From the NCBI GenBank assembly GCA_013359225.1, contig JABWCG010000001.1, positions 360,021 to 424,020 of the forward strand: a stretch of DNA of 64,000 bases, written 5' to 3'. The notes beneath the pieces were generated by a model, which saw only the letters and a program-made list of their open reading frames with translations, was not told where the DNA came from and searched no databases. Every line of letters begins with the position of its first letter. The stretch's first letter is position 1. Of this stretch, positions 3,204 to 61,125 are shown in pieces. Source of the DNA: Candidatus Buchananbacteria bacterium (GTDB lineage Bacteria; Patescibacteriota; Patescibacteriia; Buchananbacterales; UBA6539). The position numbers and the translations under genes are program-made.

Positions 3204-3821
3204 ATGAACAATAGCGGATACAAACTGCCTGCATTACCATACAGTTATGATGCGTTGGAACCATTTATCGACCAGCAAACAATGCAGCTGCATCACGACA
3301 AACATCACCAAACGTATGTTGACAAGCTCAACGCGGCGCTAACCGGACATGAAGAACTTAAAATGAAATCTCCCGAAGAGTTAATCAGTAATTTGGAATC
3401 ACTACCAGCTGAAATCAAAACCGCTGTTCAAAATCATGGCGGGGGACACATTAACCATTCGCTGTTTTGGAATATTCTTAAAAAAGATACTGCTATCACC
3501 GGCGAAATTAAAGAAGCCATCACTACCCAATTCGGCAGTTTTGATGCTTTTAAAGAACAATTCAGTAAAGCTGCCCTCAACCAATTCGGTAGCGGCTGGG
3601 CCTGGCTTGTTGTTAATCAGGCCGGAGCACTTGAAATAACTGCTACTGCCAACCAAAACTCGCCACTGTCAGATGGCAAAATGCCAATTCTGGCACTTGA
3701 TATCTGGGAACATGCCTATTATCTCAAATATCAAAACAAGCGTCCGGATTATATTGAAGCCTTCTTTAATATTATCAACTGGGACGAAGTCAATAATAAC
3801 TATCGCGCCGCCAAGAAATAA
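3204..3821 (+). CDS. sodA: superoxide dismutase, Fe/Mn family
   Basis: Hallmark motifs [10 protein letters not shown] and [20 protein letters not shown] strong SD (AAAGGAG) precedes the ATG. Confidence 0.95.
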
Positions 3822-3830
3822 ATAACTTCT

Positions 3831-5471
3831 ATGAAAGCTTCTGACCTACTCGTTCAAGCGCTCGAAAATGAGGGAGTAACCCATATTTTTGGCGTTCCAG
3901 GTGAAGAAAATTTGGATTTGATTGATTCCCTGAGAGATTCAAAAATCAAATTGATTGTCACTCGCCACGAACAAGCCGCCGGTTTTATGGCCGCCACCGT
4001 CGGCCGGCTGACTGGCGTACCCGGCGTTGCACTTTCAACGCTTGGACCGGGTGCCACAAATTTAATTACTGCGGCAGCGTACGCCAATCTTGGCGGCATG
4101 CCGTTGTTTCTATTGACTGGACAAAAACCGGTTAAACGTAGTAAGCAGGGAAAATTTCAAATGATTGATACGGTACAAATTATGAAACCGGTTACCAAAT
4201 TTTCCAAACAGATCGTCTATAGTGAAAGCATCCCTGCGCTGGTTCGCGAAGCATTCAAAAAAGCCGAGAGCGAGCGACCGGGTGCGGTCCACCTGGAATT
4301 GCCCGAAGATGTTGCCGCTGAAAAGGTGACCGAAAAACTTTTCGCAGTCACCCAAGTCCGACGGCCCGTCGCCGACAGCAAGGCAATCAGCCTCGCTGTT
4401 GAAATGATCAAGTCAGCAAAACTACCACTGTTGGTTATTGGCGCCGCTGCCAACCGTAAACAGACTGCTAAAATGCTCCAAGAATTCATAGACAAAACCG
4501 GCATTTACTTTATTGACACCCAAATGGGCAAAGGAGTAATCGATGAACGCCACGAAAAATATCTGGGCACAGCCGCACTATCGGCCAACGATTATGTTCA
4601 CTGTGCGCTTGATCGGGCCGATCTGATTATCAACGTCGGCCACGATATCATTGAAAAGCCGCCGTTTATTATGGCCCCGGATAAAAAACAAAAAGTCATA
4701 CATATCAATTTTTTTCCGGCGGAAATCGATCAAATTTATTTCCCGCAACTTGAGGTGGTTGGAGATATTGCCAACGCCGTTTGGCAAATAAAAGAGCAGC
4801 TCCCGTCGATTAATTGGAATTTTGATTACTACCAAAAAGTCAAAACTCTGTGCGCCGAACAAATGAAAATTGCATCAGAACAGAAGAATTTTCCGTTAAG
4901 TCCTCAATCGATCGTCGAACAAATCCGTCAGGCTATGCCCGACGATGGTATCGTGGCGCTTGATAACGGAATGTATAAAGTGTGGTTTGCCCGGCAGTAC
5001 CAAACATATCAACCAAATACCTTACTGCTTGATAACGCCCTTGCCACAATGGGGGCTGGACTGCCATCGGCAATCGCCGCAAAAATTGTACATCCAAGAA
5101 AAAAGGTGTTAGCCGTTGTTGGCGACGGTGGTTTTATGATGAATTCTCAAGAATTAGAAACAGCTGTCCGGCTGGGACTTAATATAACGATTGTTATTAT
5201 TAACGACAACGGGTTTGGAATGATAAAATGGAAACAACAGGCGATGAAATTTCAAGATTTTGGCTTGAGCTACCATAATCCCGATTTTGTTGCCTATGCT
5301 CAAAGCTACGGTGCCAGCGGTCACCGAATTGAAAACAACCACTCATTAAAAAATACCATTGATCAATGCCTTAATACTCCAGGCGTTCACGTTATTGAAG
5401 TGCCGGTTGATTACTCGTATAACCACAAAATTCTAACCGAAGAATTAGCTAAAAAAACCTGTAATCTATAA
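3831..5471 (+). CDS. thiamine-pyrophosphate enzyme, acetolactate synthase large-subunit-like
   Basis: TPP-enzyme N-terminal motifs (GVPGEENLDLIDSL) and central/C-terminal TPP-binding motifs (GDGGFMMNSQELETA). Confidence 0.8.
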   Translation: MKASDLLVQALENEGVTHIFGVPGEENLDLIDSLRDSKIKLIVTRHEQAAGFMAATVGRLTGVPGVALSTLGPGATNLITAAAYANLGGMPLFLLTGQKPVKRSKQGKFQMIDTVQIMKPVTKFSKQIVYSESIPALVREAFKKAESERPGAVHLELPEDVAAEKVTEKLFAVTQVRRPVADSKAISLAVEMIKSAKLPLLVIGAAANRKQTAKMLQEFIDKTGIYFIDTQMGKGVIDERHEKYLGTAALSANDYVHCALDRADLIINVGHDIIEKPPFIMAPDKKQKVIHINFFPAEIDQIYFPQLEVVGDIANAVWQIKEQLPSINWNFDYYQKVKTLCAEQMKIASEQKNFPLSPQSIVEQIRQAMPDDGIVALDNGMYKVWFARQYQTYQPNTLLLDNALATMGAGLPSAIAAKIVHPRKKVLAVVGDGGFMMNSQELETAVRLGLNITIVIINDNGFGMIKWKQQAMKFQDFGLSYHNPDFVAYAQSYGASGHRIENNHSLKNTIDQCLNTPGVHVIEVPVDYSYNHKILTEELAKKTCNL

Positions 5472-5475
5472 TTAT

Positions 5476-6840
5476 ATGGCTCTACAATCAATTAACCCGG
5501 CTACAGAAGAAATTTTTTCCAAAACCGAAGAATTAACCAATGAACAGATTAAAGAAAAAATTACTTTGGCGGATCATACTTTTGCCAAATGGAGGACCAC
5601 AACATTTGAAGACCGGGCAAAATTAATTAATGAGGTAGCTAAAATTTTAAGATCCGAAGCCCAGACGATTGGCGAAATTATGACCAAAGAAATGGGCAAA
5701 CCTATCAAACAAGCCATAGCCGAAGTCGAAAAGTGTGCTTGGGTTTGCGAATATTATGCTAAAGAAGCACCTAAATTTTTAACTCCGGAAAAAATTACCA
5801 CCGATGCCAGCGAAAGTCTGGTTCGATACGATCCGATCGGTATTGTGCTTGCAATTATGCCATGGAATTTCCCGTTTTGGCAGGTTATTCGTTTTGCCGC
5901 CCCGGCTCTTATGGCCGGAAATGTCGGACTGCTCAAGCATGCCTCCAATGTTCAGCTGGCGGCTAAAAAAATTGAAGAAATTTTTTTGCGTGCCGGCATT
6001 CCGGTTGGGGTATTTCAAAATCTTGCCATTAGTTCCGGAAAGGTTGAAACAATCATTCGCGATCCAAGGGTTAAGGCGGTCACTTTAACCGGCAGTGAAC
6101 ATGCTGGCGCTAAAGTTGCAGCTTTGGCCGCTTCAGAAATTAAAAAGTCTGTCTTAGAACTTGGGGGCAGCGATCCCTTTATCGTCCTGGAAGATGCGGA
6201 CATAGCAAATGCCTGTTCAGTCGCCGTTACCGCCCGCAATATCAATAACGGACAAAGCTGCATCGCCGCTAAACGGTTCATTGTGGTTTCAAGCGTTGCT
6301 GAAGAATTCAAAAAATTATTTAAAGAAAAGTTCGAAGCGTTAAAAATTGGCGACCCAATGGCTGAAACAACCGATATCGGCCCGGTTGTCAACAAGCAGG
6401 CTCTGGAAGAACTAGAAAATCAAATCAAAAAATCAGTTGCCGCCGGCGCCAAAATTCTAACTGGCGGAAAGCGGGTAGGAAACACCGGCTACTTCTTACA
6501 GCCAACCATTCTGACTGAGGTCGCACCGGGCATGCCAGCCTACCACGAAGAATTTTTTGGACCGGTTGCATCAGTTATTGTCGTTAAAGACGAGGCTGAA
6601 GCCGTTCAGGTTGCAAACGATACCCATTTTGGTTTAGGTGCCTCAATCTGGACAAGTAACATCAGCCGTGCCAAACAGCTTATTCCGCAAATTGACGCCG
6701 GCGCTGTCTTTGTTAACGGTCTGGTAAAATCCGATCCACGCTTGCCATTTGGCGGTGAAAAGCGTTCTGGTTTTGGTCGTGAATTATCACACCACGGCAT
6801 CAAAGAATTTGTTAATATAAAATCGGTCTGGATTAAATAA
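5476..6840 (+). CDS. NAD(P)-dependent aldehyde dehydrogenase family protein
   Basis: ALDH signatures: the catalytic-Cys region GQSCIAAKR and the Glu motif LELGGSDP. Confidence 0.85.
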   Translation: MALQSINPATEEIFSKTEELTNEQIKEKITLADHTFAKWRTTTFEDRAKLINEVAKILRSEAQTIGEIMTKEMGKPIKQAIAEVEKCAWVCEYYAKEAPKFLTPEKITTDASESLVRYDPIGIVLAIMPWNFPFWQVIRFAAPALMAGNVGLLKHASNVQLAAKKIEEIFLRAGIPVGVFQNLAISSGKVETIIRDPRVKAVTLTGSEHAGAKVAALAASEIKKSVLELGGSDPFIVLEDADIANACSVAVTARNINNGQSCIAAKRFIVVSSVAEEFKKLFKEKFEALKIGDPMAETTDIGPVVNKQALEELENQIKKSVAAGAKILTGGKRVGNTGYFLQPTILTEVAPGMPAYHEEFFGPVASVIVVKDEAEAVQVANDTHFGLGASIWTSNISRAKQLIPQIDAGAVFVNGLVKSDPRLPFGGEKRSGFGRELSHHGIKEFVNIKSVWIK

Positions 6841-13481: not shown

Positions 13482-14264
13482 ATGAACAACCCGGAATTAT
13501 CAATCATTATTGTCAGCTGGAACGTTAAAGATTTGCTCAAGAAATGTCTCCAGTCAATTGAAAAATACCGAAACAAGCTGGCGGTTGAAATTATTGTTGT
13601 TGATAACGCCTCCAAAGACGGGACTGTTGAAATGCTCAAAACAGAATTTCCGGATGTTCGACTGATAACTAACAGTAATAATCTCGGTTTTGCCGCCGCC
13701 AATAACCAAGGCATCTTGCGTAGCCAAGGAGATTATATCTTATTGCTGAATCCCGATACTGAAGTCATTAAAGACACACTCAACAAAATGCTTAATTTTA
13801 TAAAAATCAGACCACAGATTGGCATTCTGGGTTGCAAGCATCTCAACCCTGACTGGACGCTCCAGCCGTCAGTCAGGCGTTTTCCGGCATTCTGGGCAAT
13901 ATTTTTTATTCTGACTAAATTGTACAAAATTTTTCCAAACATTCCTCCAATCTACTACTATTTTGCCGAGGACTTTAATTATAAAATTTCCCAACCAATT
14001 GATCAGGTTGCGGGCTCATGCATGATGATTCGTCGGCAGACCATTGAAGAAATCGGTTTGCTTGATGAGAGATTTTTTATCTGGTTTGAAGAAGTTGATC
14101 TCTGCAAACGCTCTAAAGATGCCGGCTGGGAAGTCTGGTACACACCAGACGCTGAACTGATTCATTACGGCGGACAAAGTTTTCGCCAGGTCGGAACCTG
14201 GAAAAAACAAAAAATATTCTTTCAAAGCGCCATTTATTACTTCCGCAAACACGGTCTACGCTAA
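13482..14264 (+). CDS. glycosyltransferase family 2
   Basis: LSIIIVSWNVKDLL...VVDNASKDGT, and a DxD region LLLNPDTE. Confidence 0.85.
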   Translation: MNNPELSIIIVSWNVKDLLKKCLQSIEKYRNKLAVEIIVVDNASKDGTVEMLKTEFPDVRLITNSNNLGFAAANNQGILRSQGDYILLLNPDTEVIKDTLNKMLNFIKIRPQIGILGCKHLNPDWTLQPSVRRFPAFWAIFFILTKLYKIFPNIPPIYYYFAEDFNYKISQPIDQVAGSCMMIRRQTIEEIGLLDERFFIWFEEVDLCKRSKDAGWEVWYTPDAELIHYGGQSFRQVGTWKKQKIFFQSAIYYFRKHGLR

Positions 14265-14270
14265 CAACCA

Positions 14271-14298
14271 AAAACGCCCCGCAGATGGGGCGTTTTTT
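14271..14298 (+). terminator. strong intrinsic terminator (AAAACGCCCC GCAGAT GGGGCGTTTT)
   Basis: A 10-bp perfect stem with a T-run. It closes the glycosyltransferase operon. Confidence 0.8.
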
Positions 14299-14326
14299 GA
14301 CAATATCAACAAAAAGAGGATAAAAT
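14297..14326 (+). promoter_or_regulatory. sigma-70-type promoter for the downstream leader/sRNA
   Basis: -35 TTGACA at 14297-14302, an 18-bp spacer, and -10 TAAAAT at 14321-14326. Confidence 0.5.
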
Positions 14327-14403
14327 CAAACTGTAACTTTACCCCGTGAGTTACCCTAACCGACGATCAGGCCGATCGTCAACCAGCCAAGGAGGGTAGG
14401 CTC

Positions 14404-14445
14404 ATGCGTCCGACAACTTGTTGGGCATGTACGGGAAGGAGGTGA
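14404..14445 (+). CDS. candidate leader micro-ORF (13 aa, MRPTTCWACTGRR)
   Basis: ATG 14404 lies 7 nt after AAGGAGGG (14389-14396). The TGA stop at 14443-14445 is embedded in the next SD-like element. It may be translated only as part of a regulatory mechanism. Confidence 0.2.
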   Translation: MRPTTCWACTGRR

Positions 14446-14500
14446 TCCGATCTAATCCCCAGGAAAGGAGGTGAACATCGGTTCACATTGCAGTTTGTAC

Positions 14501-14540
14501 GGGCTCCTGTGTCACTTGACGCAGGGCCCATTTTTATTTG
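14501..14540 (+). terminator. terminator-like hairpin inside the leader (GGGCtCCTG ... CAGGGCCC + ATTTTTATTTG)
   Basis: An 8-bp stem with one bulge and a 12-nt loop, followed by a T-rich tract. A -10-like TAGAAT at 14560-14565 follows, so the downstream gene may have its own weak promoter. Confidence 0.55.
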
Positions 14541-14578
14541 TCTTTTTAAGCCTGCTGGGCTAGAATAAAATTGCCAAT

Positions 14579-16555
14579 ATGAACGAAAATCTTTTTGAAA
14601 AAACTTTTATTGTTATCGTCGGTTTACTGTTAGCTACCGAAATAATGTCATTTCTTGGCCAACTATACCAACCACTCAACCTGGTTGGATTTTTTATCAT
14701 TATCATCGCCGCGGCCGTTGTTAGCTTCAAAAAATTGGAATATGGAATTTATCTCATACTCGCCGAACTCTGTATTGGCGGCAAGGGTTACCTTTTTAGT
14801 TTCGGCCTGAACAGCAGCGCCATATCCATTCGCATGGCGTTATTCCTGATATTATTTTCAGTCTGGACTGCCATAAAAATAAAAAATAAAAAAATTGGGT
14901 TTACCCTTAACAAAAAATTTCTCATACCATATAGCCTGCTGGCCCTAACTATCTGCTACGGCATCATAAACGGTTTTTTGCATAACCAAACCAGCAGTGT
15001 TATTTTTGATTTCAACGCCTGGATATTTTTTGCGTTACTTTTCATTTTTATCGACGCTCTCAACAGGCCCGATACCACCAGGGGTGCCATCAGAATTATT
15101 TTTGCCGCCACCAGCCTGCTGGCCGTAAAAACGATACTGACACTAGTGTTTTTTTCACACGGCTTAACGGAACTTGGCGACCCGTTCTATAAATGGATTC
15201 GCGACACCGGCGTAGGGGAGATTACCTATATTTCCGGAACATTATTTAGAGTCTTTTTTCAATCACAGCTCTACGTTTTAATCGGCCTGTTCATTGCATT
15301 AACGCTGGTGCTGCAAAAGAAAATCAGTCGGTCAAAAGAAGACATTCTTTTACTAATCTATATTTACCTAATGTCACTAACTTTAATTATCAGCCAATCG
15401 CGCAGTTTTTGGATAGGAGCAGCGTCAGCAATCATAGTTCTAATCGGATACCTTTGGTGGCGGTCGGAAAAGTCGTTTAAAAAAATTACTATTTTGATTA
15501 TCGCCATCATCGCCACTGTTGCGTCACAGATACTATTAATTCAAGTCCTGACCAACAATTTTTCCAGTAATCCGATTTCCGATCGTTTTAGGCACCTGTC
15601 AACCGATGCGGCCGGCAACAGCCGCCTCAACCAACTTGAACCTCTTTTATACAATATTTCTCAGCAATCCATTGTTGGTTATGGTTTCGGTAAGGAATTA
15701 ACCTATCAAAGTACTGACCCGCGGATTGTCGCATCAAATCCGGGCGGCATCTACACCACCTATGCCTTTGAGTGGGGATACTTAGACACTGTCTTAAAAC
15801 TAGGAATTTTAGGATTACTTGTCTATTTCTTTTTAGTCTATACCATTATCGTTTCTGGTCTCAAAAACCCGAGTCCAACGAATATTGGTTTATTAACGGG
15901 TTTAGTTGCCGTGCTTGCCACTAATATTTTTTCGCCTTATCTTAACCATCCGCTCGGTATTGGCTACTTATTATTATTATCAGCAATCTTTAATCAGGTC
16001 TCAATGCTGGAAAAAATCAAACAGTTTGTCCATCAATCATTTGCCCAAAGCCATTACCAAAAACAAAATACCCATTTCAAAAGAACTGAATATTGGTTTA
16101 AAAAATTAAATCCCAACTATGACGAAGCTGGCCAGATTGCTGCCTATGCTCATGATATCGAAAGGGCCTTTCGGAATAAAAACAGCGAAGAGACTTTTAA
16201 AAACATTGCTTTTAACAACCCTGAGTTTCTTAAACATCATGCCGAAACAGGAGCGGGTATTATCAGTAAATTTTTGGAAGGAAAATATGAGCCAACCGCC
16301 ATCACCAAAATTAACGAACTGATCAGACTTCACGAAATTGGTGGTACACCTGAAGCCGACCTACTGAAAGATGCTGATAGCATCAGCTATTTGGAGAATA
16401 ACGCGGCGCTTCACCTAAAGATGATTAATAAACTGGGCAAAGAAAAAGTTAAAGGAAAGATTGATTGGATGTACCAGCGCATCACTTCTAAAAAAGCCCG
16501 GGAAATTGCCCGGCCGCAGTATGAAAAAATTATCAAAATTTTAGAAAAAATCTAG
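14579..16555 (+). CDS. fusion protein: N-terminal O-antigen-ligase-like (Wzy_C) polytopic membrane domain + C-terminal HD-domain phosphohydrolase
   Basis: About 12 TM helices with a Wzy_C-like motif (LIISQSRSFWIGAAS). The C-terminal 170 aa carry HD-domain metal ligands (AAYAHDIER, LKHHAETG, RLHEIGG, LLKDADSISY). There is no SD; only a short 5' UTR. Confidence 0.6.
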   Translation: MNENLFEKTFIVIVGLLLATEIMSFLGQLYQPLNLVGFFIIIIAAAVVSFKKLEYGIYLILAELCIGGKGYLFSFGLNSSAISIRMALFLILFSVWTAIKIKNKKIGFTLNKKFLIPYSLLALTICYGIINGFLHNQTSSVIFDFNAWIFFALLFIFIDALNRPDTTRGAIRIIFAATSLLAVKTILTLVFFSHGLTELGDPFYKWIRDTGVGEITYISGTLFRVFFQSQLYVLIGLFIALTLVLQKKISRSKEDILLLIYIYLMSLTLIISQSRSFWIGAASAIIVLIGYLWWRSEKSFKKITILIIAIIATVASQILLIQVLTNNFSSNPISDRFRHLSTDAAGNSRLNQLEPLLYNISQQSIVGYGFGKELTYQSTDPRIVASNPGGIYTTYAFEWGYLDTVLKLGILGLLVYFFLVYTIIVSGLKNPSPTNIGLLTGLVAVLATNIFSPYLNHPLGIGYLLLLSAIFNQVSMLEKIKQFVHQSFAQSHYQKQNTHFKRTEYWFKKLNPNYDEAGQIAAYAHDIERAFRNKNSEETFKNIAFNNPEFLKHHAETGAGIISKFLEGKYEPTAITKINELIRLHEIGGTPEADLLKDADSISYLENNAALHLKMINKLGKEKVKGKIDWMYQRITSKKAREIARPQYEKIIKILEKI

Positions 16556-45091: not shown

Positions 45092-46105
45092 TTAGTCCTG
45101 CCAAAGCTTTTTTGCCTCATTCCAAATCTCCGGCCGACCCTGCTGTTTTGCCCAGTACCAGTATTCAACACCCCAAAGATACACTTCATTAAACCCTGCC
45201 TGCCGGACATATGAAATATTGTTTTTAAAACGATTCAAATCAAACGACCGAGCCTGCTGTGCCTCAGTCAACTCAATCATCCTTTTGTCAAGCGTCCACG
45301 GCTCCATTTGTAATTCTGTGACCAAAACTCCTTTTAAATTGCCGTTCAAAAATCCGGTGATGTCTGCCTTAAAGCGATATGCTGCCGGCGGCACGAAAAA
45401 ATAATCCCAAAAACCCAAATATTTATTCCAAACGATGCGATACAACGTAATACCAAGTTTGTCCGCCAGACCAGCCGCTGTTTGCCAGTGGTTGAGCTCA
45501 CCACTATCAGTAATAATAATGTCGCGGCTATCAAGCGCCCGAACAGCATCAACTTCCTGCCGCAAAAACTGCTTATCCGGTTTCGGACACTTCCCAAACC
45601 AGGAGAATAAAGGTTCGTTTTCTATCTGCCAGCTTTTAACTACCTGACGATCACGATACCGATTAATTGTCTCCTTAACAAATTCCAATTGATGCTGCTG
45701 GACTGCCAGCTTCGCTAAATCATTGATCCAGGCCGGATCATGACACTCCGGCCAGCGCGGTGCGCGACGGCCAACTGTCAGTATAACCTCAACATCGCGC
45801 CGCTCGGCCTCGGCTAATTGCCAATCAAGCTTCGAAAAATCAAATTGATCCTGAATTGCCTCAATGTCGTCCCAATAGGCAATTAATCGAATTTTATCGA
45901 CCCCTAAATCGTCTAAGATTGCCAAATAGCTTTCTTGCCAGTTTAATTCTAAATCACTAGCATATTTATCGCTGAATGTAACCCCAAAATTCACTTCCTG
46001 CTGTCCAAAATCAAGACTAAATAAAAAAAGCCAGCCAATGGCCAAAATTGCCGCAACTGTCAAAAAAATAACCAATCTTTTAACGATTTTATAAGATTTA
46101 TACAT
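45092..46105 (-). CDS. GH5-like (clan GH-A) glycoside hydrolase, membrane-anchored/secreted
   Basis: An N-terminal TM/signal segment. The WQIENEP motif matches the GH-A acid/base NEP signature and VLVTELQ is a candidate nucleophile region. GC content is visibly higher than in neighbouring genes. Confidence 0.55.
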   Translation of the reverse strand: MYKSYKIVKRLVIFLTVAAILAIGWLFLFSLDFGQQEVNFGVTFSDKYASDLELNWQESYLAILDDLGVDKIRLIAYWDDIEAIQDQFDFSKLDWQLAEAERRDVEVILTVGRRAPRWPECHDPAWINDLAKLAVQQHQLEFVKETINRYRDRQVVKSWQIENEPLFSWFGKCPKPDKQFLRQEVDAVRALDSRDIIITDSGELNHWQTAAGLADKLGITLYRIVWNKYLGFWDYFFVPPAAYRFKADITGFLNGNLKGVLVTELQMEPWTLDKRMIELTEAQQARSFDLNRFKNNISYVRQAGFNEVYLWGVEYWYWAKQQGRPEIWNEAKKLWQD

Positions 46106-46133
46106 ATTTTAATTATAACAATTTAAAACAGCC

Positions 46134-46162
46134 TTGACAAAGAAACTAAAATCATTTATAGT
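46134..46162 (+). promoter_or_regulatory. near-consensus sigma-70 promoter (-35 TTGACA, 17 bp, -10 TATAGT)
   Basis: TTGACA at 46134-46139 and TATAGT at 46157-46162 with an exact 17-bp spacer. It drives the GC-rich small-ORF cassette. Confidence 0.65.
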
Positions 46163-46264
46163 GTTATACATAATTTCTCCTTTTTCCGGGGGATTTTATT
46201 GTTCATTCGGCGAGACCATCAGGTCTCATAACCCTCTAAAAGAAGAGGAAGTGGAGGCAGGACA

Positions 46265-46444
46265 TTGAAGCAGTGTTCCGACAAGCAGAATGATGGCGGT
46301 TTTCATGCCGGTGTGGGCGTACAACGTCACCTCATCGTCCCCGACGATGCTTCTGGCGATCAACGCGAAATGACCTCACAACAGGGTATGACCCTGAGTG
46401 AAGCATACCGCGCTGTTGCCCAGCACCTGGCATTTGCCCGTTAA
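46265..46444 (+). CDS. orphan small protein (59 aa) in GC-rich cassette
   Basis: TTG start 7 nt after GGAGG (46253-46257), stop TAA at 46442-46444. It translates to MKQCSDKQNDGGFHAGVGVQRHLIVPDDASGDQREMTSQQGMTLSEAYRAVAQHLAFAR. Its codon usage (CTG, GCG, CGC) is unlike the host genes. It is bracketed by a consensus promoter and a terminator. Confidence 0.35.
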   Translation: MKQCSDKQNDGGFHAGVGVQRHLIVPDDASGDQREMTSQQGMTLSEAYRAVAQHLAFAR

Positions 46445-46463
46445 TCCTGCTTAATCCGTCCCC

Positions 46464-46520
46464 GACGAGGCGCAACTCAACCCTACAAGGTTGTTTTGCT
46501 CCTCGTCTCTTTTTTTAAAT
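46464..46520 (+). terminator. compound stem-loop + T-run (GACGAGG ... CCTCGTC TCTTTTTTT)
   Basis: A 7-bp outer stem (46464-46470 / 46501-46507) enclosing an inner hairpin CAACC-ctacaa-GGTTG, followed by T7. A weaker opposite-strand hairpin (46526-46549) immediately follows. Confidence 0.55.
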
Positions 46521-46547
46521 AAAAAGACTCTCGTTAAAAAACGACAG

Positions 46548-46763
46548 TCAAAGGATATCGCTATCCCACGTATGCTTGCCGGCTTTAATTTCGGCAACAA
46601 TTGAATCCTCCTCAGCTCGTGATGAAGCATTCCACAACTTCATCAAAATCCGAAATGGCACTTTCTGCAGAAGCGCCCAAGAATACAAAAAGTCTTTTCG
46701 GCACGCATGCGCCAACTCTGGACGAAGATAGCCGTCCGATGACGGCTTGCCATTATCAGACAT
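46548..46763 (-). CDS. hypothetical small protein (71 aa) downstream of mreB paralog
   Basis: ATG 46763 with GGAGG 7 nt upstream on the minus strand, 31 nt after the stop of the preceding gene. It translates to MSDNGKPSSDGYLRPELAHACRKDFLYSWALLQKVPFRILMKLWNASSRAEEDSIVAEIKAGKHTWDSDIL. The track's longer 114-aa ORF extends antisense into the mreB paralog and is rejected. Confidence 0.4.
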   Translation of the reverse strand: MSDNGKPSSDGYLRPELAHACRKDFLYSWALLQKVPFRILMKLWNASSRAEEDSIVAEIKAGKHTWDSDIL

Positions 46764-46794
46764 ACCCCAACCTCCTGTCGGGTGGTGAAAGGAA

Positions 46795-47802
46795 CTACTT
46801 AATTGCCAAGATGCTTCGTTTGTACGACTCAAGATTTTCCAGCGCGATGCCGGTACCTTTTGCCACACAAAACAAAGCTTCATCGGCAACATAAGCCGGA
46901 ACGCCTGTTACTTGGGTAATCAGTTGGTCGATATTACGAAGCAAACTTGAACCACCAGACATAATAATTCCCTTATCGATCACGTCTGCCGAAAGCTCTG
47001 GCGGGGTTTTATGCAATACATCTTTTACTGCCTGAATAATGCCTTCAAGCTCAGCCTGAATAGCATCGGTAATGTCATCGGAAGTTACTGTAATCGTTCG
47101 CGGCAAACCACTTACCACATCACGACCGCGAACTTCTTCAGTCAAACGTTCTTCTAAATACATCGCTGAACCGATATCAATTTTGATTCGTTCAGCGCTG
47201 CGCTCACCAATCGCCAAATTGTAGCGACGACGAATATGTTCAGCAATTGCACTGTCAAAACGGTTACCACCAATTCGTACCGATGTTGAGGCCACGATAC
47301 CGCCCAAAGAAATAACTGCCATTTCTGAAGTGCCGCCACCAATATCAATAATCATATGGCCAGACGGCGAACCAATCGGAATATCAGCGCCAATTGCCGC
47401 TACAATCGGCTCCTTAATGATATACGCCGCCTTCGCACCAGCAGCAATAGTTGCGTCAATCACCGCACGACGCTCAGTTGAAGTGATACCAGCCGGTACG
47501 GCAACCATCACTTCAGGACGAAATAATCGTACACCACCCAATGCCTTATTGACGAAATATCTCAACATCGCAGCGGTTGTTTTATAATCAGCAATTACAC
47601 CATCTTTCATCGGCCGCACGGCAATGATCGTGTCAGGAGTGCGTCCCAACATTTCTTTTGCCTCTGCTCCAACGGCCAAAATTTTCTTATCAACAACAGA
47701 AACTGCCACCACGGACGGTTCATTAATAACGATTCCTCGCTTTGGTACATATACTAGCGAATTCGTAGTTCCCAGATCAATTCCGATCTTCTTTATCAAC
47801 AT
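46795..47802 (-). CDS. MreB-like actin homolog, second paralog (Mbl/MreBH-like)
   Basis: A full actin-fold motif set (IDLGTTNSLVYV, IDIGGGTSEMAVISL, MSGGSSLL). It is divergent from the mreB at 38404-39462. Confidence 0.85.
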   Translation of the reverse strand: MLIKKIGIDLGTTNSLVYVPKRGIVINEPSVVAVSVVDKKILAVGAEAKEMLGRTPDTIIAVRPMKDGVIADYKTTAAMLRYFVNKALGGVRLFRPEVMVAVPAGITSTERRAVIDATIAAGAKAAYIIKEPIVAAIGADIPIGSPSGHMIIDIGGGTSEMAVISLGGIVASTSVRIGGNRFDSAIAEHIRRRYNLAIGERSAERIKIDIGSAMYLEERLTEEVRGRDVVSGLPRTITVTSDDITDAIQAELEGIIQAVKDVLHKTPPELSADVIDKGIIMSGGSSLLRNIDQLITQVTGVPAYVADEALFCVAKGTGIALENLESYKRSILAIK

Positions 47803-59828: not shown

Positions 59829-60743
59829 TTAACGAACAAACAGACTGATTGGCACAACCACGATAGCGGTTGCGCCAGCCGCCTTCAATTCGGGGATCAG
59901 GCGCTCTACTGCCGACTCCTCAACAACCGCCTCCAAGGCAAAGCCTCCCGACTTCGAAAGATCCGACCTCGTCGGCTCGTCCGCCGACGGCAGAATTCGG
60001 CAGACATCACTGCAGTTTCTAGCCGCCACATTGCACTTGACAAGGACTTTGGTTCGCGCAGCAATCACGGCATTTAACAGCAGCCGAAATTCGGCGATGA
60101 TGTTTGCCTGAACCTTATTTTCCAGCGCCGCCGGATAAGTAATCAGACACGTCTGCGATTCCAGCGCCTGTTCAACAATGCGCCAGCCGCCGACTTTCAG
60201 CGAAAGCCCCGTTTCGGTGTTCTCAAAAATCGCGTCGGCCAAGCCATGAAACGCCTCAAGCGAACCATGAACATGAATGATATCGGGACTGACTCTCTTG
60301 CCATCAAGCCAGCGCCTGGCAAATGATGGATATTCGGTCGCCACCTCATGCTCTGGCATCAAATCAGTCACCGACTGGATCGGCGAATTTTCCGGCACCG
60401 CCAACACCAACTTAGTTGACCCGTACCCGCCACGCGACAACGGATACCTGTCTAAGACCACTACCTGGTCTTCAACGCCGGCCTCCGCAATCAAATCCTG
60501 AGCGGTAAACGCCAGTTCCGCCAAACCGCGGGCCACTACTTTAGGCGAATCCCACGGCCGCATTCGGCGAACAACATCAAACGGTGGCGCAAACAAACGC
60601 TTGTTGGCGATAATACCACGATACGATCGATCACCCCCCGGATAACTAACCGCACAATGGGCATCGGCAAGTAACCGGTGAATCACTTCCTTTAGTGATC
60701 CGTCCGGAACTACCAAGCGACATCCCTCACGACCCTCGTTCAA
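59829..60743 (-). CDS. hisG: ATP phosphoribosyltransferase, long form with C-terminal regulatory domain
   Basis: The periplasmic-binding-like catalytic fold and a C-terminal HisG_C-like segment (AAGATAIVVVPISLF). It overlaps hisI by 17 nt. Assignment is moderately confident. Confidence 0.65.
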   Translation of the reverse strand: MNEGREGCRLVVPDGSLKEVIHRLLADAHCAVSYPGGDRSYRGIIANKRLFAPPFDVVRRMRPWDSPKVVARGLAELAFTAQDLIAEAGVEDQVVVLDRYPLSRGGYGSTKLVLAVPENSPIQSVTDLMPEHEVATEYPSFARRWLDGKRVSPDIIHVHGSLEAFHGLADAIFENTETGLSLKVGGWRIVEQALESQTCLITYPAALENKVQANIIAEFRLLLNAVIAARTKVLVKCNVAARNCSDVCRILPSADEPTRSDLSKSGGFALEAVVEESAVERLIPELKAAGATAIVVVPISLFVR

Positions 60744-61125
60744 ATACGTATCCTCCTTCCTGCACTACACCATCAAGCTTAGTGAAAAAACAGCTTGGTT
60801 TACCAAAATGGCAGGCATACCCGTCGCCTGACACTTCAACCAAAAGTAGCACACAGTCTTTGTCGCAGTCAAGATAAGCGTCCCGGATTTTCATTGTGTT
60901 ACCGGATTCACCACCCTTATACCAAAGCAAATGGCGCGAAGTTGACCACAGCCAAACCTCGCCAGTCGCTTTAGTGTTTGACCAGGCTTCCTGATCAATA
61001 AAGCCGTGCATCAGTACCTCCTTTGTCCGGTAGTCCTGGACAATCGCCAGTACCAAACCGCCGCGCTGATTCAGCGACAAATCCAGTCGTGCTGAAAAAT
61101 CAGGAGCAAGCTCTTCTTTTTCCAT
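60727..61125 (-). CDS. hisI: phosphoribosyl-AMP cyclohydrolase (HisI domain only)
   Basis: LVLAIVQD ... the Cys-rich metal site (DCDKDCVLLLVE...GYACH). At 132 aa there is no HisE domain. Confidence 0.8.
   Translation of the reverse strand: MEKEELAPDFSARLDLSLNQRGGLVLAIVQDYRTKEVLMHGFIDQEAWSNTKATGEVWLWSTSRHLLWYKGGESGNTMKIRDAYLDCDKDCVLLLVEVSGDGYACHFGKPSCFFTKLDGVVQEGGYVFERGS

Follow-up and report, generated by a model that had tools for sequence, protein, structure and literature searches.

A 64-kb window of DNA from a metagenome-assembled genome of Candidatus Buchananbacteria, an uncultured, ultra-small member of the Patescibacteria or candidate phyla radiation (CPR), carries a small RNA element between a GT2 glycosyltransferase gene and a Wzy_C/DUF4202 gene. 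This element is an independent transcription unit, a putative small gene for a ribosome-engaging RNA, and not a leader of the gene that follows it. At its centre lies a Shine–Dalgarno (SD) sequence that forms a perfect 13-nucleotide (nt) complement of the 16S rRNA 3′ tail and leads into no start codon at a working distance. The function of the RNA is inferred from its sequence, and the reading favoured here, which is held tentatively, is that of a ribosome-docking RNA that serves as decoy or parking place through its pairing with the 16S tail and is gated by translation of its own short open reading frame (ORF). The region 13900-15000 of the window was read directly, and all features listed for it in an earlier account made from the letters alone (the original prediction) are present at the positions given there. 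Coordinates refer to the window, and the features of the element and of its immediate flanks lie on the plus strand.

Three SD-type sites are found in the element. The first, SD1 (AAGGAGGG, 14389-14396), stands 7 nt ahead of an ATG at 14404 and is partly masked, in the predicted fold, by 14345-14357 (CGTGAGTTACCCT). The second, SD2, a ‘super-SD’ (AAGGAGGTGATCC, 14436-14448), is the 13-nt tail complement that the original prediction had pointed out, and it matches E. coli 16S rRNA (rrsH) exactly at positions 1529-1541; the E. coli molecule served as a stand-in for the tail, and the window contains no rRNA gene. The third, SD3 (AAAGGAGGTGA, 14464-14474), starts 28 nt after SD2, as had been noticed earlier; it is likewise an orphan SD, weaker than SD2 and repeating the SD2 unit in degenerate form. 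Predicted duplexes with the 16S tail reach -29.2 kcal/mol for SD2 and -22.2 kcal/mol for SD3. Neither is followed by ATG, GTG or TTG at 4-12 nt in the window, so the claim that both lack a start at functional spacing holds. An exact 13-mer such as SD2 would be expected 0.002 times in 128 kb, and AAGGAGG occurs six times on both strands of the window (128 kb), three of these six falling inside a single 87-nt stretch, in the element.

Several other uses of these sites were considered and rejected. An ORF starting from SD3, with near-cognate AUC and AUU starts included, has no consistent frame, length or spacing in the homologues. A minus-strand RNA bearing two mimics of the 16S tail is at odds with the promoter and terminator, which lie on the plus strand in all members, and a minus-strand coding gene has no conserved frame. 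No other GGATCACC-type partner for SD2 was found in the window above chance.

The SD cluster is conspicuous against a genome that has few SDs and is largely leaderless. A 16S-tail duplex of -8 kcal/mol or better is available to only 3 of the 59 window ORFs of at least 120 amino acids (aa), the median being -2.2; the SD-bearing genes are hisG (59829-60743), a hisI-type gene (60727-61125) and the gene for an Fe/Mn superoxide dismutase (3204-3821). In 18 of the 59, the -10 box ends 4-15 nt before the start codon, which makes these genes leaderless or nearly so.

Relatives of the element were collected by several routes, and they are named below by L-numbers, the locus labels of their contigs. A protein-anchored scan of GTDB genomes combined with nhmmer gave L004 and L015, upstream of the orthologous gene, and inspection by eye of the gaps between the GT2 and Wzy_C genes added L006, L008 and L002. 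Tracing of Wzy_C protein homologues to their contigs contributed L201, L202, L204/L205, L211 and L221. In a metagenome pattern scan for AAGGAGGTGATCC-N15-19-AGGAGG, the only true relatives among the matches listed were L092/L095, L139 and L190; the other listed matches were mostly coding, apparently representing, from the flanking codons, a (K/Q)GGDP motif of cyclophilin-type isomerases and corrin methyltransferases, and they included one 16S gene end. Some loci appeared under two labels (L139 is L004; L204/L205 is L190). The family thus comprises 12 loci from about 10 lineages: the window, L190/L204, L015, L004/L139, L092/L095, L006, L008, L002, L201, L202, L211 and L221. It is so far confined to Buchananbacteria-like Patescibacteria. 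The element always occupies the same slot, in the order NUDIX, RsuA-like, GT2, a variable island, Wzy_C, fmt and def, and the relatives L207, L210 and L219 have no island at all.

The orthologous loci, whose lack of such features would have spoken against the original prediction, retain the SD copies, the short ORF and a covarying hairpin. The segment GGUGAUC is invariant in the SD2 of all 12 members. In six lineages, SD2 is an exact complement of 16S 1526/1529-1541 over 13-16 nt (16 nt in L004 and L092, 14 nt in L190), and the remaining six loci have a complement of 8-10 nt around GGUGAUC (in L221 by reading). For the first 11 loci, the SD2-tail duplex is predicted at between -22 and -30 kcal/mol, with L221 outside this calculation. 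A degenerate SD3-like copy accompanies it in 9 of the first 11 members, usually about 28-37 nt downstream and with -17 to -22 kcal/mol. This conserved identity of 13-16 nt with AAGGAGGUGAUCC(AAC/AGC) is explained by only one known cellular sequence, the 16S 3′ tail, and on this ground SD2, and more weakly SD3, would dock the 30S subunit non-productively.

The short ORF of 13 codons (MRPTTCWACTGRR, 14404-14445) is led by SD1, and its TGA (14443-14445) lies within SD2, both as originally described. In 11 of the 12 members, an SD1 motif AAAGGAGGG(T) is kept with a start codon 5-11 nt downstream of it, this codon varying among ATG, GTG and TTG. The ORFs themselves are 13-51 codons long, differ in length and reading frame, and encode unrelated peptides. 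Their stop codons lie between -8 and +24 nt from GGTGATC in 9 of 11 members, and GGTGATC is traversed in all three phases. This variation in phase, length and peptide indicates that the element is conserved as an RNA and not as codons.

Within the short ORF, a hairpin designated P1 (GTCCGACA / TGTTGGGC, 3-nt loop, 14408-14426) is supported by both folding and covariation. Among seven members, compensatory changes are seen in 4 of its 7 pairs and 95.9% of the cells are paired; the observed score lies above those of all 500 shuffles and collapses in slid registers. The P1 arms were extracted by hand, as MAFFT and RNAalifold were unusable on loops of 3-30 nt. In the close relatives L004 and L092, substitutions in P1 preserve the pairing and alter the amino acids.

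These observations bear on an alternative in which the short peptide is the product, the locus being a tiny protein-coding gene and SD2 and SD3 being incidental or affecting only the stability of its mRNA. The retention of SD1 with a properly spaced start codon in nearly every member agrees with such a gene, as does the in-frame reading of GGUCGA (GGCCGG in L006) as Gly-Arg in six members. However, unrelated peptides of 13-51 residues, the L004/L092 substitutions that spare P1 at the cost of the peptide, and the position of the most conserved segment, GGUGAUC, at or beyond the stop codon and crossed in three phases, all argue against it, and it is considered improbable.

Further structure surrounds this core. 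The fold of the region has an energy of -88.9 kcal/mol (z = -5.3), and none of 200 shuffles was equally stable. The stacked short hairpins noted earlier were recovered: a perfect 7-bp hairpin GACGATC-AGGCC-GATCGTC at 14362-14380, with a pairing probability of about 1; P1; GTGAAC-ATCG-GTTCAC at 14471-14486, read from the sequence and overlapping the 3′ end of SD3; and the terminator stem at 14501-14529. The fold also offers an alternative in which 14477-14486 pairs with SD2. A loop motif, UGGUCGAU, can pair with AUCGACCA, which has a local position in L190 and lies downstream of SD3 in L015 and L008, where pairing would enclose SD2 and SD3; the two sequences are identical among members and therefore provide no covariation evidence.

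The conclusion that the element is an independent unit follows from its own promoter and terminator, together with the separate, conserved promoter of the Wzy_C gene. On the left, the GT2 gene (13482-14264, identified by Pfam) is closed by an intrinsic terminator at 14274-14298 (stem ACGCCCC/GGGGCGT plus TTTTTT), which lies outside the element. This terminator is visible in the letters, and weak Rfam models align there as a terminator hairpin; the terminator pattern scan did not list it. Its T-run overlaps the -35 box of a sigma-70-type promoter at 14297-14326, which consists of TTGACA (14297-14302), an 18-nt spacer and TAAAAT (14321-14326) and agrees with the consensus at 11 of 12 positions. 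The predicted transcript of about 205 nt extends from 14333, a 5′ end inferred from the -10 box, to 14540, where the T-tract of the element's own intrinsic terminator ends. That terminator (14501-14540) has a stem at 14501-14529, GGGC-T-CCTGTGTC / GACGCAGG-GCCC, followed by the T-tract TTTTTATTT, and was detected by both the pattern scan and the fold. No plus-strand ORF of at least 60 aa lies between 14265 and 14578. The leading terminator, the promoter, the ORF-free stretch and the second terminator of the original prediction are thereby confirmed.

The same architecture recurs in the relatives. A terminator is present at the matching position in every lineage examined except L202; in the window and all these lineages, it follows the orphan SDs within 25-190 nt and no cistron shares the unit. 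Most members would yield a transcript of about 200-300 nt ending at its own terminator. Promoters with 11 of 12 matches and strong terminators occur at matching positions in L015 and L190, and the element promoter is also visible in L092, L004 and L008. In L004, the promoter is located further upstream, and an SD-led 80-aa ORF (5465-5707, GAGGAGGAAGGAGAT-ATG, no Pfam match) precedes the element on the same transcript. Just upstream of the element promoter, L004 (5310-5385) and L092 (about 570-660 of the reverse complement) share a conserved terminator-like sequence, CC(T/C)CACTCAA(A)TGGTT(T)AAGCGATGAACC...GAGTG(A/G)GG plus a T-run.

On the right, the Wzy_C/DUF4202 gene has a promoter of its own at 14538-14566 (TTGTCT-17-TAGAAT, 9 of 12 matches), outside the element, with the -10 box TAGAAT at 14561-14566 and the ATG at 14579. 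Orthologous loci conserve this -10 box, (a/g)GCTAAAAT / GCTAGAAT, 6-18 nt ahead of the ATG, and they do so irrespective of what lies upstream, be it the element, a zinc-ribbon gene or a gene for a secreted protein. In the window, L001-L012, L202 and L204, the -10 box is preceded by a T-rich run (TTTTTATTTGTTTTTTT-like), and the terminator of the upstream unit merges there into the promoter. The gene has no SD, as had been stated. Its product (14579-16555, 658 aa) returned no record in an exact-protein look-up and is the only one with a C-terminal DUF4202/HD-like domain among the 120 best matches listed, the others being 418-555 aa long, covering at most 73% of it and giving no DUF4202 hit.

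The original prediction had viewed the whole stretch as a promoter-to-gene leader and had proposed, among other readings, a translation-coupled attenuator. The leader view does not stand, given an RNA that ends at its own terminator and a downstream gene with its own conserved -10 box. In an attenuator of Wzy_C, translation of the short ORF would decide whether the terminator at 14501-14540 forms. The order of short ORF, hairpins, terminator and gene is the classic one, and either of the two copies of UGUACGGG, at 14429-14436 and 14496-14503, would in principle be open to pairing with a 5′ CCCCGU. Nevertheless, the Wzy_C -10 box is conserved in all relatives, including those without the element; genes with their own promoters intervene between element and Wzy_C in L092, L211, L002, L201 and L204; and Wzy_C appears leaderless or short-leadered, so that read-through transcripts would bury its SD-less start codon. 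A duplex search over about 10 lineages, poorly alignable outside the core, found no consistent antiterminator pairing. Attenuation of Wzy_C is therefore regarded as very improbable. The likeness to leader-peptide, erm and cat attenuators is nonetheless considerable: an SD1-led short ORF with an unconserved peptide, hairpins that a ribosome must melt, a maskable second SD and a terminator downstream. Unlike erm and cat attenuation, no ORF consistently follows SD2 or SD3, and unlike leader-peptide attenuators, the next gene has its own conserved promoter and no conserved mutually exclusive helices were found.

In the favoured ribosome-docking reading, SD2 and SD3 would pair with the single-stranded 16S 3′ tail, and the docked 30S subunit could not initiate. 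The short ORF would be translated from SD1, and its ribosome would melt P1 and mostly terminate on or beside SD2. This melting of P1 and the stop at SD2 suggest that translation gates or loads the docking site, either by controlling access to it or by handing the terminating subunit over to it. Subunits whose anti-SD is free would then be caught or parked on the RNA, which may itself be shielded by the bound 30S, as with the orphan SD of STAB-SD (see below). If strongly transcribed, such a decoy could tune the few SD-dependent genes of an organism that starts nearly all its genes without an SD, or could hold ribosomes idle. A role of this kind is plausible because the cells are reported to be ribosome-poor, with few ribosomes per cell described for these bacteria (PMC12641178). 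A more specific proposal makes the RNA a natural anti-anti-SD decoy, paired with the 16S tail over at least 13 nt, on which 30S subunits delivered by translation of the short ORF are parked or silenced; it would be a hibernation or partitioning device in an organism with few ribosomes and mostly leaderless, SD-independent initiation. This proposal is more doubtful. Of the sponge RNA mimicking the rRNA tail that had been suggested originally, the sponge survives and the mimicry does not, as the RNA complements the tail and mimics an mRNA ribosome-binding site.

Several observations weigh against ribosome docking. Each RNA has only two or three sites, which is few for a sponge. For the host 16S tail, GGAUCACCUCCUU is taken over from E. 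coli on the assumption that this sequence is nearly universal. In many of the predicted folds, SD2 itself is engaged in pairing within the RNA, with a partner that changes from one member to the next; a fixed intramolecular partner was rejected. The GGAGG core of SD2 varies (GGCGG in L006, GCAGG in L202, GGGGG in L211 and L221, an inserted A in L002), and the better conservation of GGUGAUC than of this core is odd for a plain SD. The critical contact could be 16S 1530-1536 or something else, and another partner, a protein or a DNA-level site, could be involved. Moreover, the element of L202 lacks a terminator and forms the 5′ leader of SD-led genes, and orphan SD units also occur in the 5′ untranslated regions (UTRs) of island genes, so that the window copy could be a stabiliser module without its gene.

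The conservation pattern of SD2 leads to one alternative, in which the purine-rich units bind a protein, with GGUGAUCC, for example, as a specific site, making the RNA a sponge like CsrB or RsmZ, perhaps for the zinc-ribbon proteins of the island; or else GGTGATCC is a DNA operator or methylation site for the surface-glycan island. A short RNA with a terminator and two or three repeated units would suit it, as would the better conservation of GGUGAUC than of the GGAGG core and the presence of four GATC sites inside a 90-bp stretch of the window. In L092, L211 and L002, the element is immediately followed by a zinc-ribbon gene, and in L008 one other gene intervenes. However, this link is not strict, since the window, L015, L004 and L006 have no such gene, and L003, L005 and L010 have the gene without the element. 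A protein site gives no reason for an exact 13-16-nt match to the 16S-tail complement, and the GGA that a CsrA sponge needs, present in most units, is lost from SD2 in L006, L211 and L221. A protein or DNA site thus has little probability.

The island proteins in question are small and SD-led, carry CPxC...C..C, end in (D/N)Pxx-F(K/R)xIFG and are often encoded in tandem, at L003 5672-5926, L005 about 5250-5990, L010 about 530-1640, L008 about 1770-2290, L211 2424-2876 and the reverse complement of L092 from about 1070 onward; the two copies tested against Pfam (L003 and L211) had no match. A second group in the islands consists of secreted-type proteins that are Ala/Thr-rich, with signal-peptide-like N-termini (MKRCT...), encoded by GC-rich, SD-led genes whose long 5′ UTRs contain orphan SD units. 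Their loci are L204 2317-2877, L202 2188-2625, L201 about 2400-2810, L007 about 4790-5280 and L001 from about 5380 onward, and their composition contrasts with the AT-rich surrounding genomes; two tested in Pfam (L204 and L202) gave no match.

Genes of these two groups would be the cargo in a further alternative, that of a STAB-SD-type 5′ stabiliser or leader module of SD-led island genes, whose cargo was lost in the window and which is possibly decaying there. The terminator-less L202 element continues into SD-led ORFs at 2057-2191 and 2188-2625, island genes of L201, L204 and L001 carry orphan SD units such as ACGGAAAGGAGGGAT in their long 5′ UTRs, and island content differs from genome to genome, L207, L210 and L219 lacking the element. 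Against this, four lineages (the window, L015, L004 and L006), with Wzy_C proteins only about 40-50% identical, have stand-alone copies directly before the Wzy_C promoter. All four have an intact terminator, all but L015 an SD-led short ORF, and in the window, L015 and L006, the promoter is directly upstream (in L004, it is ahead of the 80-aa ORF). A decaying remnant would not retain the compensatory changes of P1 and an invariant GGUGAUC. The module is therefore judged unlikely, though less so than a peptide gene or a protein site.

STAB-SD itself is an orphan SD in the cryIIIA 5′ UTR of Bacillus thuringiensis that binds the 30S subunit without translation and protects the RNA (Agaisse and Lereclus 1996, cited in PMC5737220). 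As far as that citing account goes, SD2 and SD3 share with it the complementarity to the 16S 3′ end, an untranslated RNA context and the lack of a start codon at a working distance. Measured against the same account, the complement in the element differs in spanning 13 nt, not 9, and reaching into GGAUCA of the tail, and in the presence of two copies behind a short, translated-looking ORF. The place described there for STAB-SD, in the 5′ UTR of a longer mRNA, is matched only in L202; elsewhere the element has no downstream cistron to stabilise.

Decoy RNAs form another class with which the element can be compared, among them CsrB and RsmZ, which act on CsrA, and 6S RNA, which acts on RNA polymerase. 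RosA, in turn, is a sponge for the C-rich sRNA RoxS (PMC8216469). Like them, the element is a short, terminated, independent RNA that repeats a mimic of a target site, in this case an mRNA ribosome-binding site. Unlike them, it has the 16S tail as its presumed target, only two or three sites and a translatable short ORF. In SD-poor Bacteroidetes, the anti-SD is sequestered and a few regulatory strong SDs drive real genes (PMC7797042). The element likewise belongs to a genome in which strong SDs are rare and conspicuous, and these may serve as reporters of ribosomes with a free anti-SD; in contrast to those cases, SD2 and SD3 of the element drive no gene.

The sequence AGG AGG UGA in the window, L004 and L092, an SD-like element immediately upstream of an in-frame UGA, recalls the frameshift site of prfB (release factor 2). 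In contrast to prfB, there is no slippery CUU codon and no extended +1 frame, and other members stop elsewhere or cross SD2 in other phases. A type III toxin–antitoxin system, with ToxI-like repeats and a ToxN/AbiE-like toxin, was rejected, the downstream gene being Wzy_C/DUF4202 and the repeats amounting to only two degenerate units of about 29 nt.

Database searches place the element outside known families. With Rfam, the whole window gave no hit at the gathering threshold; on 14200-14650, with E up to 10, the only hits were driven by terminators (14-22 bits against thresholds of 40-79), and six homologous loci searched with E up to 0.5 gave nothing on the element. The earlier failure to match it to riboswitch or T-box families is thus confirmed, no Rfam family fitting it. 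No tRNA or tmRNA was found in the 64-kb window. A literature search found no natural decoy for the 16S tail and no direct study of SD use or leaderless genes in Patescibacteria. The parts are familiar, namely an SD-led short ORF, an orphan SD and a terminator. Their stand-alone arrangement, the 13-nt tail complement and the conservation in an SD-poor CPR lineage are not in Rfam or the literature searched.

A spacer motif adjoins SD2. In the window, it is ATCTAATCC at 14450-14458, which recurs in some members and whose significance is unproven. In the form (A)UCUAAUC(C/U), it is seen 1-25 nt past SD2 in the window, L008, L211 (twice), L221 and, as a wobble version, L004. In L211 and L221, it occupies the loop of a hairpin with a covarying stem (GGGAG/CUCCC versus GAGAG/CUCUC). 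The spacer motif AUCUAAUCC is complementary to the 16S 790 loop (785-793), but no weight is given to this match, as the site comes only 622nd among 1529 in an unbiased scan; 8-mer complements to 16S are common by chance, at about four per family member.

A phage origin of the element was likewise rejected. Six viral-contig hits all lie, where read, behind the stop codon of the preceding gene and look like ordinary intergenic SDs, and annotated phage records contain no match to the element. Among IMG/VR proviruses, L213, L214 and L217 carry AAGGAGGTGATCCG-TCTAAT(C/T)C-AAATAGA(A/G)AGGAGG, which in L214 was read behind the stop of an ORF resembling the terminase large subunit. This sequence has both window SDs, with the spacer motif TCTAATCC in L214 and TCTAATTC in L213 and L217. 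The resemblance could be coincidence or could reflect a shared ribosome-contact motif.

Elsewhere in the window, two further sites were noticed. On the minus strand at 2240-2400, another SD-led mini transcription unit comprises a terminator, GAAAGGAGGTTTTGG, a tiny ORF (TTG TGG AAA GAA CAA ATG TTA CCT TTC ACT AAT TAA) and a second terminator hairpin (CAGCCCGAAAA...TTTTCGGGCTG). Also on the minus strand, a GC-richer gap of 690 nt at 46105-46795, downstream of an ORF (46795-47802) that is mreB-like from reading of its translation only, contains an ORF of 71 aa, introduced by CAGGAGGTTGGGGT-ATG and unmatched in Pfam, along with several more AGGAG motifs.

On the conservative reading, the element represents a new conserved RNA family in a phylum with almost no known regulatory RNAs, and it marks a hypervariable island of surface-glycan and secreted-protein genes that are unusual in that they are SD-led. 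If the ribosome-docking reading is true, it would be a natural RNA that regulates through the 16S rRNA tail rather than through an mRNA or a protein. It would then provide a handle on the role of a conserved anti-SD in CPR bacteria that barely use SDs, as well as on the control of ribosomes in ultra-small cells that contain few of them.

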